Assembly (NCBI GenBank): GCA_951406725.2
Contig: OX597822.1
Location: 49,476,001-49,540,000 of the forward strand
Direction of reading: 5' to 3'
DNA length: 64,000 nt
DNA from: Octopus vulgaris
Lineage: Eukaryota
Made by a program: the position numbers and the translations under genes
Notes under the pieces: generated by a model
What the model saw: the letters and a program-made list of their open reading frames with translations, nothing else
Database searches by the model: none
What the model was told of the DNA's origin: nothing
Part shown: one piece after another, positions 7,672-61,105 of the stretch
How the letters are laid out: each line of letters begins with the position of its first letter
Position numbering within the stretch: position 1 is the stretch's first letter

Positions 7672-9730
7672 CAAGGATATCTCACTGGTACACAAGGAAA
7701 CAGAAATACCAAAATTACACATGGTTTCTTTGTGGATGACTTGAAATTTTATGCAAAGAATATGCATGAGATGAAAAAGAGCCTTGACTGAATTACAAAA
7801 TTCTCAAAGGATATAGAGCTGGAGTTTGGTCAGGATAAATGTTGTTATATGGTTGTGAAAATGGAGAAAACTATAAAGCACACTAGCAACATCTCCATCG
7901 ATGATTTGACTGTTTCTCCAGACGAGGAATATTACACGTATCTAGGAGTGGATGAAAACATATCTTAATGGCACCTATGACAAAACACGTATCATTAAAG
8001 AATATTACAGCCGATTAAAGAAACTTTTGACCTCAGAACTCTCTAGATACAATGAAACAGTGACCCACAATGTCTTTGCAGCACCAATTCTCATAGCAAC
8101 ATTTTGGTTGCTTGATTGGACGCTTGATGAGATTCGAGCTATTGATGTGAAAATTACTAACAAGCACACATAAAATCTACATAAATAGTGACGTAGACCG
8201 CCTCTACCTATAACGAAAACAGGGCAGCAGATGCTTAACATCGATCCAAAATGACTTTGAATGTCGTATCACATCCCTTCGGCAACATCTTTTAATCACC
8301 AAGTGTCGACCAAGTTTGTATACATGATGCTGATAACATCATAAGATTTGGAAGGTAGCTCTTTGAGCAATATCCCTTGTCTAATAACCTACAATACATG
8401 CCCAAATACGTCGCACGACTTTACCGCAACGTATCATCAAATGAAAGGATGAGCCTATATAAGCAGAAGACTGTGCATGGCTATGTTAGTTGGAAGCTCC
8501 GAGATTATAGTAACATTGGTCATAAAAGCAGTCTCCAATAGCCGGATTACTACCTCCTACAATGAAGGGTATGAGTTTGAAATCCAGAAACAAGAAATAT
8601 CAAGCAAATACTTAATGCAGAAAAGTTATAGAAATGCAGGAAAAGTAGAAAAATGTGACGACCGATGCAGATTTCGTGGAGTTAACTCCGAAAATATCAC
8701 CCACATCATAAGCAGTTGTCCAAAAATGTCATCACGGTATTATCTACCGAGGAGACATACTGTTGTAGACAGGACACTCTATAATGAAATCCTTCGGAAT
8801 GATAATCCCGTTGATAAAGAAATAAAAACCCACAGTATGGTAGAAGCCAAAGCATATCATAATAAAAAACTGTATTTGTGGAATGTCCCAGTGAAGACCT
8901 ACCTCCATCAAATGTAAACACAAAAGACCTGATAGAGAAGAGAAACTGTGTGTTGTAGTAGAAATCAGCTACCCATCGGATGTTAACATACAGCTGAAGA
9001 TCAGTAAAAAATGAATATCAACGCTGAAATATTGGGAAAGTTGTTTCACACCTATTATGCTATTTTTCTTTTGTTTCTTGGCTCCGGTGAGGCGACTCGG
9101 AACATTCACGATTCCTCTACCCCACCTCCCTTTCGCGAGCGCGCATTTTTGTTTTGATATGCGTTTAGAGCAAGTTGTTTTACATCTGTTACACTATTTT
9201 CCTTTTGTTTTTTTTTTGCTCGGGTCAAACGCTTTAGTTTAACCGAGAAACCTGCAGTGACTCTATCCAGATTACAAGTTCGGATTTATATCTGTAATTA
9301 CTGGGGCCCTGAGGTATGTAACACACTGCCTAAATACCGATCTTGAGAAATTAGGCTTCTCAAAATCAGAAAAGAGGAAGCTAATTCGAAGACTACAGAT
9401 CCAATCCATTACTGAAACTGTAAAAATCTGTAAAGCTTTCCAGGAGTTTATCATTTAAATATATATGAGCATTTCCAGATATGCAACAACATGCATGAAG
9501 ATTCATACATAAAGCAAAACATAGAAATCTGCACATATACATACATACATACATACATACATACATACATACATACATACATACATACATACATACATAC
9601 ATACACACATACAAAAAAACACAAATACTTTGTTGTTGATGTTGAAATTCCAATGAATAGCCTTGGATCTAAGTTAGAAACCGGCTCTTACTCTATTAGC
9701 AAGAAATCTTGAAATAAAACTAAAGAATGA
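7672..9730 (+). mobile_element. R4/Dong-like RLE non-LTR retrotransposon, 5'-truncated and decayed
   Basis: FVDDLKFYA, LEFGQDKC, YTYLG (RT), CRF..ENITHIISSC..YYLPRRH (CCHC knuckle), KRPD and VVEIS (RLE), FGFISVITGALRYV; flanked by (TACA)n. Confidence 0.85.
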
Positions 9731-21083: not shown

Positions 21084-21104
21084 CATATATATATATAGTG
21101 ACGT

Positions 21105-21200
21105 ATATTTGCCATTTCAATATGGCTACCCCTAAGGGTGGATGCTACTGTAGTTTTTAGCCCCAGGAGGACACACTCCTCCAGCTGGCCATAGACACAC
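21105..21200 (-). repeat. Fragment of the ~350-bp structured repeat family
   Basis: Reverse complement ccagctggaggag..cctggggctaaaaactacagtagcatccacccttaggggtagcca matches 59150-59217. Confidence 0.8.
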
Positions 21201-22318
21201 TTATATATATATATGTATATGTATATGTAAATCCGCATCTAAAGGTATCATAGAACAAGACAGTAGTGTGTATATTAAAAGTCATTAAAGTATACAGTTC
21301 CTATTATTGTAAACCAATTTAAAACTATATAATGGCACTACTGGGTACTATTAGTCCACAAGCAGATTGGTACTATGAGAAAAGTTACCTTGAATCAAGC
21401 AACTTACTAAGAATGCCTAAAGGGCAGAAAACAAATGTCCTATGATAAGAGAGAAATACTAATTGAACCTAAATATAAAATTTCTAAGCAAAGGTGTATT
21501 AAATTCAGGTAGATGTAAAAAAATACTTATGGGCATAGAGTACAATAAAGTAAAAATAAAATATCCAACACATAATGAAAATAAAAATTAAATGAAAAGG
21601 ATGGAAAAATCAAACATGGGGGAAATATTGTTCACATGTATGTAGGGCTAATAATGTGGCAGAAAACCTAAAGACTTTTGTGTTCTCGGATCAGTTATGG
21701 TAGAAATAAAAGGCATAATACAAGGGGTTAGGTGATGGTAAAATGGGGGAAATGTTACTTGGTGTAAGAAATAGGTAATAGATATGGGGGGTGAGGTTAT
21801 ATTTAAAACTTAGGAGAAGGGTAAGAGGAGAGGTTGGTTATTTGTCTTTCTACAAGAGCCTCGGTTATTACTAACAAGATGGAATATAGTCCATCTGACC
21901 GGTGTTTGCCAGAGCGCTAATGAATTTATAACGTGGCGGATTTGGAATTTCTTGTCATGTAACTCATACAGAGTAAAGTGGAGGCCAACGGGCCAACACC
22001 CGAAGCTATGGTGTATGAGCATCTGAACAGCATAATCTTTATCGCTATATCTTTTTAATTCTTTATCCTTTTCCTCGCATACTGTTATTGTCTATGGTTT
22101 TGGTGCCTTACGGCGGTTGGATCGAGATCCTGTTTCTCATTTCTAAACAAGTTGATTGTCACTTCGTATTAATATTATATTTATATCTTATAGCTTATAA
22201 TACTATTATACCTGTGAACCGCTTATGTTACTGCTGTTAATATTATCAATTTAAAATATTTGCCATATATGGTATTAGCAATAGTAACATCTTATTTCAG
22301 ATGTAAACATTCGAATGC

Positions 22319-30244: not shown

Positions 30245-31190
30245 GGCATCCCTCCGCTTTTGGTTGTCTCGAACACGTAAGCCATAAAGATATTAAAATA
30301 TTTATTCATTTTAGCTGATATAGCCGTCTCATCCAAAAATAATACGCTAAAGTACCCACTTACAATTGTTTAACAAATGTCAATATCGGTGAAATCTTTT
30401 CTGTGTTAAATGTTAAGACACTATTACATTGCGAAACTAACACTTAAACAGGTGCTTACGGTTTTCATTAGGAATAAAATGCTGCAATGAAATTATACTC
30501 AAGTTATGGATTAAATATAGGATATCAATATATGGTGAAAGAAGTCTCTGTAAAAAATCAAATTGAGCATGATTTGTACAAAGAAAAATCTAGTAGCAAT
30601 ATAAATGGAAATCAAAACATATAAAAAGAAAAAAAAAAGAATTCGTATACTTGAGGAGACATTTATGCCAAATGAGGCAAATATTAAGATAAACGTGTTA
30701 ATATACAATTCTAATTGCTGATGATGAATTATATACATGAACGTGAAATTCCCAAGAATACAGAAGGGCATACAAAAGGACATAATTCACGTACTTTAAT
30801 GAAATGTATACCAACCTACCTACGTACATATATATATACATATATATATATATATACATATATATATACATATATATATACATATATATATATATAAACT
30901 TTTTTGAATGCATAATATTCAATGTGACAATTATGTAAAAAACTTTTTTTGAACCCATAATATCCAATGTGACAATTATGTAAAAAACTTTTTTGAATGC
31001 ATAATATTCAATGTGACAATTATGTAAAAAACTTTTTTTGAACCCATATTATTCAATGTTTCCTTAAATGTAACTTTTGACAATCTTTTACCAAAGAGTG
31101 AAACCGGTTAAGTAAATAAACATCGTTTAAATTGCATTTTCAAACCTTTTTTCTTATATAATCCCACTCGTGCGATACCCCACAACTCAA

Positions 31191-35271: not shown

Positions 35272-36430
35272 CCATTATTCAGCTTCATTTCGCGATTTCT
35301 TGCCAATAAAGAAATAATTGGTTTCTAACCTAGATCCAAGGCGTCTTGATTGGAATTTCAACATCAACAACAAGGAATTTTTGTATGTATGTATGTACAC
35401 ATGTAGATCTGTATGTCTTGTTCCCGATATGTCTTCTCATGCATATACTCGCGAAGCTAGACATGCTCATATATACGTAAATGATAAACTCCTGGAAAGT
35501 TTTACAGATTTTTACAGTTCCTGTGATAGATTGGATCTGTAGTCTTCGAAGCCGCTTTCTCCTTTTTGGTTTTGAGAAGCTAGTCTTTCACGACTAATAT
35601 TTAGGCAGTGCGTTACATATCCCAGTGCCCCAATAATTACAGGTATTAAACTTAACGTCTGGCCTGAATAGAGTAATGGCAGATTTCTCAATAGTTCAGC
35701 GTAGGTATTCCCTTTTTCACTGATCTTCAGCTTTATCTTGACATCCGCTGGGCAGCTGATTTCCACAACTGTACATAGTTTTTCTTCTCTATCCCAAGTC
35801 ATTTTATCAGGCCTATTGTGTTTACATTTTATTGCGTTCCTCACTGGGACATTCCACCAGTATTCCTTTTTAACATGAGTGGCTATGGCTTCCACCATAC
35901 TGTGAGTTCTTATTAGTTTGTCCTCGGGGTTATCCTTTGGATCTCGTTATACAGTGTCCTAACTACAATATCATGTCTCAGCGGTAAGTAATACTGTGAT
36001 GACATTTTCAGACAACTGCTTATGCTGTAGTTGATATCTTCGGTGTTAACTCCACAAAGTCTGCATCGGTTGTAACATTTTATTCCCTTTCCCGCATATC
36101 TGTCCTTTTTGTGTGTCAGGTATTTGATTGATATATATATATAGTTCCTGCATTGCAAACGCATACACTTCAGAGCGAGAGGTAGTAAACCTGTTGTTGC
36201 TCCATAATAGACTGCTTTGGTGCTCAATGTTACTATCACCTCTGAACTTTCTACTAATATAACCATGCATGATCTTCTGCTGATATACGCTCATCCTTTC
36301 CTCCGATGATACTTTGCGGTAGAGTCGTGCGACGTGTTTGGCCATGCCTTTAAGGTTATCGAACAAGGAATGCTGCACAAGGAACTGCCTTCCAAGTCTT
36401 ATGATGTTATCAACCTCATGTATGCAAACT

Positions 36431-48313: not shown

Positions 48314-48357
48314 CTTTATTTAAAGCAGCAGAAAATTCTACAAAACCTGTTACTCTG

Positions 48358-48713
48358 AGTTTCCGTCTACAAAATCCACTCACAAGGCTTCGGTAAGACA
48401 CGGGTAAAATACTATTTCGTCCGTTTTCACGTTCTGAGTTCAAATTCCGACAGGGGGTCGACTTTGCTCTTCATCCTTTTGCGGTCGAAAAATGATTACC
48501 AGTTTAGCACTGGAGTCCATGTAATCGACAAATCCTCTCACCCGAAATCGCATTGACTCCAGTGCTAAACTGGTACTCATTTTTCGACCGCAAAAGAATG
48601 AAGGGCAAAGTCGACCCCCGTCGGAATTTGAACTCAGAACATGAAAACGGACGAAATGGTATTTTACCCGTGTGTTACCGAAGCCTTGTGAGTGGATTTG
48701 GTAGACGGAAACT
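48358..48713. repeat. Inverted duplication of a SINE B/SINE A chimeric junction; ~165-bp arms
   Basis: 48358-~48520 pairs with ~48553-48713; both arms share the junction aaggcttcggtaa(g/c)acacgggtaaaat. Confidence 0.9.
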
Positions 48714-48968
48714 GAAAGAAGCCTGTCGTATATATGTATATATATACATGTATGCGTGTATATGCTTGTGTGTCTGTGTTTGTCCCCCCCAACATCGCTT
48801 GACAACCGATGCTGTTGTGTTTACATCCCCGTAACTTAGCGGTTCGGCAAAAGAGACCGATAGAATAAGTACTAGGCTTACAAAGCATATGTCCTGGGGT
48901 CGATATCCTCGTCTAAAGGCGGTGCTGCAGCATGGCTGTAAGTCAAATGACTGAAACAAGTAAAAGAG
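48680..48968 (+). mobile_element. CORE-type SINE family B, 5'-truncated
   Basis: aagccttgtgagtggatttggtagacggaaactgaaagaagc through to gactgaaacaagtaaaaga. Confidence 0.88.
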
Positions 48969-50084: not shown

Positions 50085-50469
50085 TTAACTCTTTTACATG
50101 TTTCAGTCATTTGACTGCGGCCATGCTGGAGCACCGCCTTTAGTCGAGCAAATCGACCCCGGGACGTATTCTTTGTAAGCCCAGTACTTCTTCTATCGGT
50201 CACTTTTGCCGAACCGCTAAGTGACGGGGACGTAAACACACCAGCATCGGTTGTCAAGCAATGCTAGGGGGACAAACACAGACACACAAACACATACACA
50301 TACATACATATACATATATACACATATATACGACAGGCTTCTTTCAGTTTCCGTCTACCAAATCCACTCACGAGGCATTGGTCGGCCCGGGGCTACAGCA
50401 GAAGACACTTGCCGAAGATGCCACGCAGTAGGACTGAACCTGGAACCATGTGGTTGGTTAGCAAGCTAT
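50085..50469 (-). mobile_element. CORE-type SINE family B
   Basis: High similarity to 22319-22695. Confidence 0.9.
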
Positions 50470-50602
50470 GTATCTATCAGTCTATCTATCTATATACTTC
50501 ATTCCACCTATATATATTTAATTCTGTGACAGATACCTCTCAAAAGCGCAGGGTTAAGCAATAGGACTGTTACCTAATACTCCGTTGAACTCCTAGTACG
50601 AA

Positions 50603-50654
<52 letters not shown>

Positions 50655-50660
<6 letters not shown>

Positions 50661-51239
50661 AATCTCTGAACGAGATATAAACAGTAACCGCTCGACAACG
50701 TAAGGGGTATCAGCCATCTGAATGTGGCTAGCCACTGGAGTGGGTGGTGGTGGGGTGTTACTGATGCTTTTAGCCCCAGGCGATCAACGTCACCAGAAGG
50801 ACTTTAGACACTATCTCAGTGTCCTTGTGTTACTTGCAAAGGGAGGTCATCCTCCCTCGAAGACCCGAGTACTACATACGGATAATTGTCGAGCAGTTAC
50901 TGTTTATATCTCGTTCAGAGATTTATTATTGTTTTCAGACAGTTGTTCTACATCAGTGACAGTGGTTACTGTGAAAAACATTATATATTACTTGCGAGGG
51001 GACTCCTTCATCGAAGACCGGTGCTTACCATTCGTTGACGAGAGGCAATTACCTTGAAACTATAGTCCGTATGTAGTACTCGGGTCTTCGAGGGAGGATG
51101 ACCTCCTTTGCAAGTAACACAAGGGCACTGAGATAGTGTCTAAAGTCCTTCTGGTGACGTTGATCGCCTGGGGCTAAAAGCATCAGTAACACCCCCCCCC
51201 AGTGGCTAGCCACATTCAGATGGCTGATACCCTTACGTT
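50655..51239. repeat. ~350-bp structured element: one + monomer (50886-51239) head-to-head with a permuted partial - copy (50655-50882), inside (TA)n
   Basis: 50697-50882 is the inverse of 51065-51239; 50655-50698 is the inverse of 50886-50929. Confidence 0.9.
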
Positions 51240-52134
51240 ATATATATATATATATATATTGGCATGTGAACCACTAAGTGTGAAAGATCCTTAGTTCTTG
51301 TTAGAAGTATCACGTAGGAGAAGGTAAGCTCGTATGAAAAGAAAAACAAAAGCAACATAAAAACCAAAAGGTAAGTGCAGTTGGTTTCTGGCCGTCCCCA
51401 CTTATGATGTACCACTCGCTTTGTAGCTGATTGCGCTGAAAAGTGTGTTCAACGCTATGCATCACTTGATCCACTGAAATATTCATGGCCTTTCGGAATA
51501 TTTACATGGACTTACTAAGTAAGAGGTGGACTTTATTGGGGAAAGGGGCTGCGTCTGTTGCCTTCTCACGTATCGAATCATTATCAGATACATGCCAGAA
51601 ACTTACGGATTATTAAATTAATAAAATGGAAGCTATAGTAAATACTGGGACCGGACGCTTAAGTACTTATTTTTACCTCAGCCTATCGGTAAACTAACTT
51701 GAATAATATCTGTAGTGGCCCTTTCTATTTTTCAATATAAAAAATACTGAACGAAATGGTTAAGTTAAAACGTGTTGAATGTTTGGTAGTTATTATATTC
51801 AATCGTTATGAAATGAAAAGCGAACATAACATATTAGAAACAAGAAAAATAAATCGGCCTAAAGCAAAGAACACTGAAATGTTCAAAAAAGAATTATTCT
51901 TTTAGTGATTTAAGATTTTCTGCAATGTAATTTGGTTCACAGCGATAAGAGATTTAACAAAGCGCTTAGAAGGAAAACACATAAAAGATATAGCAACAAC
52001 AGTGTATATTTGGAATGATGCCTTGTAATCTGGGAATATTTTTAGTAAGCCAGCACTTACCGTGAGAAATACAGAATGGAGAAAATGTGTTAACTGTTGT
52101 ATGAAATGACAGATACAAAGTTAAGTTCTCTTTA

Positions 52135-58755: not shown

Positions 58756-59270
58756 TCCCTTTGTAAATACTGATAGTGCACTGATACGATTCCAGCTGAA
58801 GGAGATATTTTCCTGAGGTTACAAGCTACAGTAGCATCAACCCCTAAGGGTTAGCTGCTTTTAGGTGACAAATATACTGCATGATATCGTGCAGCTACTG
58901 TCTATACCTCACTCAGAGATTTATTATTGCTTGTTTCCACTTTATCGATATCAGTGACTTTTCGTCACTGGAAAAATTATATATATATATTTGCATTGAT
59001 AATCACTTCCCATCGCCAATCGGTGTTTGTCATATGCTGATAACGCATCACTACCCAGAAATTCGGGTCCGTGTGTATCACGTCAGGCTGCAGATGGGAA
59101 AGATGACTTCCCTTTCAAATACTGATAGGGCACAGAAAGGTTGTCAATAGCCAGCTGGAGGAGAAATCTCCCTGGGGCTACAAGCTAAAGTAGCATCAAC
59201 CCTTAAGGGTTAGCCACAATTCAGTGACAACTAAACTTCACTGTTTATACCTCGCCCCGAGATTTATTAT
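58756..59270 (+). repeat. ~1.5 tandem units of the ~350-bp structured element, inside (TA)n
   Basis: 58756-58927 is repeated at 59109-59270; both end in gagatttattat. Confidence 0.85.
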
Positions 59271-60054: not shown

Positions 60055-61105
60055 AGTATATTTCTTGTCTTGAGACAGCATTCACCCGGGGTGGGTTGAG
60101 CTGGCTTCATTCATCCTCAATGCTGCATCTCTCACAAACGCCGACCAGACCTGGCGATTTGTGGCTAACGACCGCGTGATCTCCGACCACTCCCTATTCC
60201 AGCGGCGAACGCCGTAGATATGGGATCCTAGGTTGGGTTCCAGATCAGTCTTGACTGTCATCAGCCAGGTTTTTCGTTGTTCACCACATCGCTTTCGCCA
60301 ACCCTGAAGGGGAGCTGGGGCAATTGCTTCGTAGATGTATTCTCCTGGTTGACGACGGAGGGCATGACCCAGCCAACGCAGACGTCTCGTTAGGATGACT
60401 TGTCGGGGGGAGGTGATTTTGCACTGGTGTCGGACTGAATTGTTAGAGACAAAGTGATGCCATCGGACACGAAGGATGCGGCGTATGCAGAGGTGATCGA
60501 AGGATTCTAGTCGCTTAATATCTTCCACCCTCATCGGCCATGACTCGCTGCCGTAAAAGAGAATCGTCCACACTTGTACTTAGTAGATCCCTACTTTGGT
60601 AGTGCGTCGGATCTGAGATCTTGACCAGAGTCATGCATTGAGTCGGTTGAAAGTTTGGCGATTGAGGTCGTTTCGTGTTTTAGTGTCAGCCTCATCTTGA
60701 CCTGTGGCTGTAATGATGGCGCCAAGATATTTCGAACTCTCAACCTCTTCAAGAATATCACCATTGCGGACAATGGGTGTTTTATCTGGTGGGGCGAAAC
60801 CGGCTGTGAGGATTTTGGTCTTCGAGGCAATGACTTTCATACCAACCTGTGATGCAACACACTGGTGCTCATTGGTAGCAAACTGGACGTCAGCAAATGT
60901 TTCACCAAATATCGCAATGCCATCTGCGTAGTGTAGATTCTTGACAGAAAAGTTGTGACCAGCAGTGACACCGGTGAACTCCCTTAATGCATTTGTGGTG
61001 ATCTAGTCGATGGCGTAATTGAAAAGAGTCGGCGAAAGAACACGTCCTTGCCGAACGCCATATCGTATTTCAAAGGGATCCGACACTTCACCGTAAGAGT
61101 ACCTG
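60055..61105 (-). mobile_element. RTE-clade LINE, 5'-truncated
   Basis: QGRVLSPTLFNYAID, LHYADGIA, KTKIL, KYLGA, LFYGSESW, RRILRVRW and RRLRWLGHALRR. Confidence 0.92.

Follow-up and report, generated by a model that had tools for sequence, protein, structure and literature searches.

A short non-coding repeat family with the insertion structure of hammerhead-less Penelope-like elements

Introduction

Penelope-like elements (PLEs) leave insertions of a characteristic shape, namely partial tandems that are truncated at the 5' end, in many cases accompanied by a neighbouring truncated copy in inverted orientation and by a tail of 30-40 bp at one end (PMC8557442). The same structures are built without a hammerhead by Naiads and by most Chlamys elements, and Naiads, for which that paper reports no canonical hammerhead, show a bias towards (TA)n targets that is also seen in Hydra (PMC8557442). 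Octopus families of both Naiad and Hydra have been catalogued, and non-autonomous, pseudo-LTR-forming elements of the Chlamys type exist, such as MRC1 in Chlamydomonas (PMC8557442). PLEs are present in octopus and are partly recently active (PMC13282606, PMC8967140). The origin of the inverted pseudo-LTRs (pLTRs) and of the one-sided tails is stated as unresolved in PMC8557442. Head-to-head is the usual orientation of an inverted pLTR, pLTRs suffice in trans, and self-priming has been proposed (PMC3846280). The PLE of the anole nicks and extends both strands of AT-rich DNA in vitro; reverse transcription initiates at two neighbouring positions within a stem-loop, which define the tail, and hammerhead cleavage is unnecessary (PMC11167929). 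Retrozymes, in turn, are defined by their hammerhead and have been proposed to be non-autonomous derivatives of PLEs (PMC7229834, bioRxiv 10.64898/2026.07.22.740005, PMC6765202).

Here, a non-coding repeat with a unit of about 350 bp is described from a window of 64 kb, the window being the whole stretch of DNA that was analysed. Its main locus, E1 (50655-51239), is probably a non-autonomous, hammerhead-less PLE (mini-PLE), likely one young insertion, copied in trans; the copying enzyme would, by analogy with autonomous PLEs, likely be a PLE reverse transcriptase/GIY-YIG endonuclease supplied from elsewhere.

Anatomy of the main locus

On the plus strand E1 reads A-x-B (50886-51239) and on the minus strand B-A (50882-50655), a layout already proposed by an earlier sequence-only reading of this DNA and confirmed here by self-BLAST and global alignment (Table 1). 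A (50886-50929) recurs on the minus strand at 50698-50655 with 43/44 identical positions (BLAST E 9e-16), and B (51066-51239) recurs on that strand at 50882-50697 with 173 identities in 174 aligned bases (BLAST E 2e-74), the latter alignment containing 12 gap positions, 10 of which form one indel in a C-rich tract. Taken as a whole the arms are identical at 216/218 aligned bases, in line with the near-identity reported earlier, and differ by 2 substitutions and 3 indels. So few substitutions suggest a young insertion, no more than about 1 million years old should the rate given in PMC13282606 apply. B runs directly into A on the minus strand with a 2-nt TT overlap, which gives a unit of 352 bp, while the 2-3 bases in the centre of the locus (50883-50885) belong to neither arm. 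The outer ends adjoin (TA)n on both sides, as had also been seen before.

The absence of a credible ORF, another claim of the sequence-only reading, stands with a correction, as a Met-started frame of 111 aa (50722-51054) crosses the junction. It is the only long frame in E1, has no match in Pfam, and is not a credible ORF. The description of the element as structured is likewise borne out, to a modest degree: the E1 unit folds better than its shuffles, with z about -2.8 to -3.3 (-2.8 and -2.9 for the strands). A long imperfect hairpin predicted at about 50988-51117, in which the 3' part of x pairs with the start of B, is weakly kept in a second locus of the family.

Table 1. Features of the main locus E1 and of its two relatives in the window
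Feature	Position	Strand	Remarks
Left (TA)n target microsatellite	50607..50654	.	TRF array 50607-50657, 25.5 copies; boundary ambiguous by a few nt
Tail A of inverted arm	50655..50698	-	Ends at fixed 3' site 2, the same end as E2 at 59270
Small predicted hairpin	within 50655..50698	-	7 nt before the site 2 end
Inverted 5'-truncated pseudo-LTR (B)	50697..50882	-	Form with long C-rich tract; from alignment
Predicted multi-hairpin fold over B-to-A join	50682..50763	-	Prediction only
Head-to-head junction	50883..50885	.	2-3 bases
A, 5' end of main copy	50886..50929	+	5' end at site 1, so that the main copy spans exactly one unit
Internal segment x	50930..51065	+	Non-coding; counterpart in E2 at 58928-59066
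B of main copy	51066..51239	+	Form with short C-rich tract; 3' end at site 1, no tail
Right (TA)n target microsatellite	51240..51259	.	
E2, direct partial tandem B-A-x-B-A	58757..59270	+	Within (TA)n; ends at site 2
E3, 5'-truncated B	21098..21203	-	3' end 3 nt or less from site 1; flanked by (TA)n on either side

Relatives within the window

A profile search of the 64-kb window recovered three loci of the family, so that the inventory of the sequence-only reading was correct for E1 and had overlooked two relatives, E2 and E3. E2 consists of a truncated B-A (58757-58927) followed by x-B-A and has a unit of 343 bp, which is identical to the E1 unit at 247/334 aligned bases. Its own two repeats agree at only 125/153 positions, making E2 probably much older than E1, and the downstream repeat carries a 16-nt deletion over the 3' end of B. 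E3 is found at an nhmmer E of 1.8e-30 with a profile that includes E3 itself. Since A-x-B is continuous in two copies that are 26% apart, the element is this closed unit of about 350 bp itself and no random fragment of some longer UTR.

The three loci also bear on two further explanations of E1. On the minus strand the locus can be read as ITR-x-ICR-ITR-extension, the order of a non-autonomous DIRS element in which B' and B would serve as inverted terminal repeats (ITRs), A would extend the right end, and the internal A' would be the internal complementary region (ICR). [quoted passage not shown] Moreover, copies bounded by ITRs account for one of the three loci, E2 being a direct partial tandem and E3 a truncated solo B. 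The DIRS reading is thus largely refuted already, and of the explanations weighed here we give it the least credence, as extremely unlikely. A DIRS ITR or ICR, or an ordinary UTR belonging to an autonomous element, was the outcome that the sequence-only reading had named as speaking against itself, and neither was found.

Alternatively, an ordinary SINE-like repeat might have undergone a later local rearrangement, or the assembly might have folded back on itself. Another repeat just 2 kb away does form a palindrome of about 370 bp (48353-48718), and the central junction of E1 is spanned by no contig among the 32 of 4,948 matches listed. However, the end of the inverted arm coincides to the base with that of E2, and the arms differ by the substitutions and indels given above; a fold-back artefact of assembly is unlikely in particular because B is joined to A in the inverted arm and not in the main copy. 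Taken together, rearrangement or fold-back is given very little probability.

Insertion ends and targets

The 3' ends of the family fall at two places, which are called site 1 (the end of B) and site 2 (the end of A) and lie 42 nt apart. Among the four 3' ends available, from three loci readable in full, two lie at site 1, within 3 nt, and two at site 2, so that a tail is present on 2/4 and absent on 2/4; at 42 nt this tail is slightly longer than the length quoted for PLEs. All four adjoin (TA)n, compared with about 1.4% expected per random end, and both free 5' ends adjoin (TA)n as well, within which a target duplication is not discernible. The three truncated 5' ends (50882, 58757, and 21203), on the other hand, lie at three different places in B. 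The main copy of E1 has its start as well as its end at site 1, to within 2 nt. An inverted, 5'-truncated, head-to-head copy is found at one of the three loci (50882-50655), and a partial tandem forming a pseudo-LTR is present at 58757-59270.

These insertion features agree point for point with the published PLE signatures, and the proposal of the sequence-only reading that a non-coding element is mobilised by PLE machinery agrees with every structural test run. Because E1 to E3 show the signatures of PLE insertion, the circular permutation that had drawn attention to E1 is understood as a tail and not as evidence for a circle. Of the circular or multimeric RNA suggested earlier, a tandem (multimeric) template is supported; the B-to-A join is the pseudo-LTR plus tail of any PLE and gives no evidence for a circle.

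Small size, lack of coding capacity, a short subterminal inverted pair, and a 3' stem-loop are features that the family shares with non-autonomous Helentrons of the HINE/DINE-1 type (PMC4067079), which move by rolling-circle DNA transposition and in which head-to-tail joins would come from circular DNA. The E1 layout loosely agrees with the description in that paper: the unit begins and ends in TT, the members of a 7-bp inverted pair sit 10 nt inside the 5' end and about 50 nt inside the 3' end, and a hairpin with a 12-bp palindrome at 51202-51225 supplies a stem-loop near the 3' end within the 8-35 bp expected. Subterminal inverted repeats of HINEs measure 12-15 bp and lie 2-4 nt from the end, however, and their targets are TT or T-rich (PMC4067079), so that the pair in E1 is both too short and misplaced, and all flanks are (TA)n. 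In addition, the family has two fixed ends 42 nt apart, E3 has no terminal TT, and the second copy in E1 is inverted and truncated. A HINE-like origin is hence held to be very unlikely.

Ribozyme search and predicted fold

Rfam yielded nothing at the gathering score in the whole window, and 14 weak matches at E<=10 in 50600-51300, mostly on (TA)n and with no ribozyme among them; the Rfam scan that the sequence-only reading had put forward as a check on a ribozyme has thus come out negative. Its statement that E1 has no CUGANGA/GAAA hammerhead holds, and extends to all three loci, the exact CUGANGA core being absent from six region-strands (both strands of E1, E2, and E3). Allowing one mismatch in the core, with a stem and GAA, gave four candidates at positions not common to E1 and E2, which is at chance level, as 351/1000 shuffles also give one. 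A permissive custom descriptor of HDV-like folds, run with no positive control, had 0 matches on 4 region-strands, and 4-7 of 25 shuffles per region match it. With no hammerhead, HDV-like, or Rfam ribozyme found, the family falls outside the definition of a retrozyme.

The join of B to A is nonetheless predicted to fold, with an outer stem of 7 bp (50757-50763 with 50682-50688) around three hairpins, the last of which carries site 1 at its loop. The pair probability of the outer stem is about 0.7 in E1 and 0.6-0.8 in E2, and one compensatory change, A-U/G-C, distinguishes the two loci. The z of this fold is about -2 (-2.1), based on two full copies, and RNAalifold, applied to 2-5 sequences, is too thin a basis for a claim of covariation.

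A retrozyme-like variant could be built on this fold, in which a PLE again moves the element but a self-cleaving fold other than a hammerhead cuts its RNA at site 1, yielding a linear or circular template of unit length, about 350 nt. From site 1 to site 1 the main copy measures exactly one unit, as would be produced by one turn of a circle or by a double cut, the predicted four-way fold surrounds site 1 in both B-to-A copies with its one compensatory pair, and the circular fold of the unit has a z of -2.4 to -3.1. Size and composition (352 and 343 bp, GC 0.46 and 0.42, for E1 and E2, respectively) are those of animal retrozymes, and the tandems seen are partial ones, with no full-unit dimer among them. 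Against this stand the negative ribozyme searches, the modest z of the B-to-A fold, which could simply be a binding site for the reverse transcriptase, and the fact that the exact unit length is one case among three loci. As hammerhead-less PLEs build identical structures, neither a retrozyme-like identity nor a new processing motif, as the sequence-only reading had proposed, is needed to explain the locus. The retrozyme-like variant is accordingly judged improbable, and we are equally sceptical of a new RNA-processing motif or a circular template for the family; that the predicted four-way junction over the B-to-A join might itself be a new class of ribozyme, self-cleaving at site 1, is doubtful to the same degree.

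Comparison with described elements

The closest likeness is found among hammerhead-less PLEs. MRC1, of the Chlamys type, is non-coding like the E1 family and forms pseudo-LTRs and head-to-tail copies, and its clade mostly has no canonical hammerhead and targets microsatellites (PMC8557442); the E1 family differs in appearing to be animal and in targeting (TA)n. Octopus Naiads share with it partial tandems, an inverted 5'-truncated copy, a tail at one end, (TA)n targets, and the lack of a canonical hammerhead (PMC8557442), but are coding elements of 3.5-4 kb whose ends are unlike the unit by eye and by short-motif search. By eye, the unit does not resemble the 3' end of Naiad_Obim, Naiad_Ovul, Naiad_Omin, or Hydra-1_Obim, and of 9 short motifs compared with the supplement of PMC8557442, 7 had no match and 2 short ones matched once each elsewhere. 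Within the window, no PLE domain was found by Pfam in the 11 frames scanned. Naiads are a candidate partner class, with no actual partner found among these four octopus consensi.

Penelope/Poseidon and the anole element PAc resemble E1 in their head-to-head inverted pLTR and optional tail, as well as in having two adjacent 3' ends and AT-rich targets (PMC3846280, PMC11167929). In contrast to the E1 family, they encode RT-EN and carry a hammerhead, and the junction of E1 has no clear palindrome. Animal non-LTR retrozymes are, like the family, 150-450 bp long, non-coding, below 50% GC, and self-paired (PMC7229834, bioRxiv 10.64898/2026.07.22.740005), but every unit of theirs bears a type I hammerhead, and they give rise to circular RNAs, whereas no hammerhead is found in the E1 family and the tandems seen are partial. 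The family resembles retrozymes in probably depending on a PLE and is not a retrozyme by the hammerhead definition.

A possible route of insertion

For the mini-PLE, the anole enzyme offers a model of how an insertion such as E1 might arise. A tandem transcript, B-A-x-B-A, would be bound by the PLE protein at the folded B-to-A join, and the enzyme would nick both strands of (TA)n. One strand, primed at site 1, would then be extended into A-x-B, with no tail, and the other, primed at site 2, into B-A, with the tail, after which the two cDNAs would be joined head to head at their truncated ends. Copying past one unit would give a direct partial tandem of the kind seen at 58757-59270.

This two-priming route is weakly supported over fold-back self-copying, since the arms differ by an indel that is also found elsewhere in the family, while fold-back of a single cDNA would make the arms identical at birth. 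The indel leans towards two templates, in a tract that is prone to slippage. The exact stop of the main copy at site 1 is left unaccounted for by the two-priming model.

The family beyond the window

Part of the stretch was matched in 20/24 of the sequencing runs listed, from five organisms and none of them recorded as RNA; X11, which may be RNA, is counted neither for nor against expression, as contigs reveal no ends, strand, or circles. Four runs contributed 1,844, 1,839, 1,080, and 168 matching contigs, which cover A, x, and B and are mostly less than 99% alike; the unit of about 350 bp thus represents an abundant and diverse family, contig counts not being copy number. Loose ends resembling the end of B precede A in at least 38 contigs of X1, 33 of X2, and 29 of X7, which makes the B-to-A join family-wide as DNA. 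One contig of X2 joins 50780 to 50960 and reflects either a further copy of head-to-head type or loss of the centre of E1. A contig of X1 with a depth of 434.7 has a 10-nt gap at 50739, a position that best fits the right arm, so that its short form is deduced from the position of a gap in the slippage-prone tract.

A 31-letter pattern from the tail had 0 matches in metagenome, genome, and viral contigs. A 20-letter pattern had 120 loci, none of which matches the family profile at E<0.01. Among these, 29 (L007, L009, L011, and 26 further loci in JAABUH, JAABUI, and JAABUP) belong to a dispersed repeat that is unrelated to the family and sharply bounded at one end, which has no match to the family profile and shares the 20-letter pattern by chance.

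The literature searched contains no description of the family, which Repbase, Dfam, or the O. vulgaris library of PMC13282606 may already hold under a different name; with this proviso, the family is real and apparently an undescribed, non-autonomous, hammerhead-less PLE. As such it would be an animal example of a type for which the animal examples found in print are hammerhead-bearing retrozymes. Being abundant and displaying every PLE signature in less than 600 bp, it offers many short, fully readable insertions, and counts of the junctions among them could separate models of fold-back self-priming, two-site priming, and circular templates. It likewise offers a minimal cis-acting RNA for work in vitro, and, should the fold at site 1 cleave itself, a new class of ribozyme.

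Neighbouring repeats

Several other repeats share the window with the family. The palindrome at 48353-48718 belongs to another repeat family and is nearly perfect over about 370 bp, its arms being 93-94% complementary around a centre of 29 nt. It adjoins a copy of a SINE-like repeat and seems to include the end of that copy. The SINE-like repeat itself, which we take to be typical of octopus genomes, occurs in two opposite copies at 48785-48936 and 50120-50271 with 89% identity. Judging by the neighbouring repeats, the host is presumably an octopod. No tRNA gene was found in the window by ARAGORN. Broken pieces of a Tc1/mariner transposase lie at 309-1184 (Pfam HTH_Tnp_Tc3_2 and DDE_3), and a broken fragment of a non-LTR reverse transcriptase, with a weak RVT_1 match below the cut-off, lies on the minus strand at 60082-61002. 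The frames at 8453-8917 and 35512-36429, which have no Pfam match, presumably resemble the C-terminal end of R4/Dong-type LINE proteins. A short tandem array with a period of 45/89 bp, at 30896-31059, starts right after a run of (TA)n.
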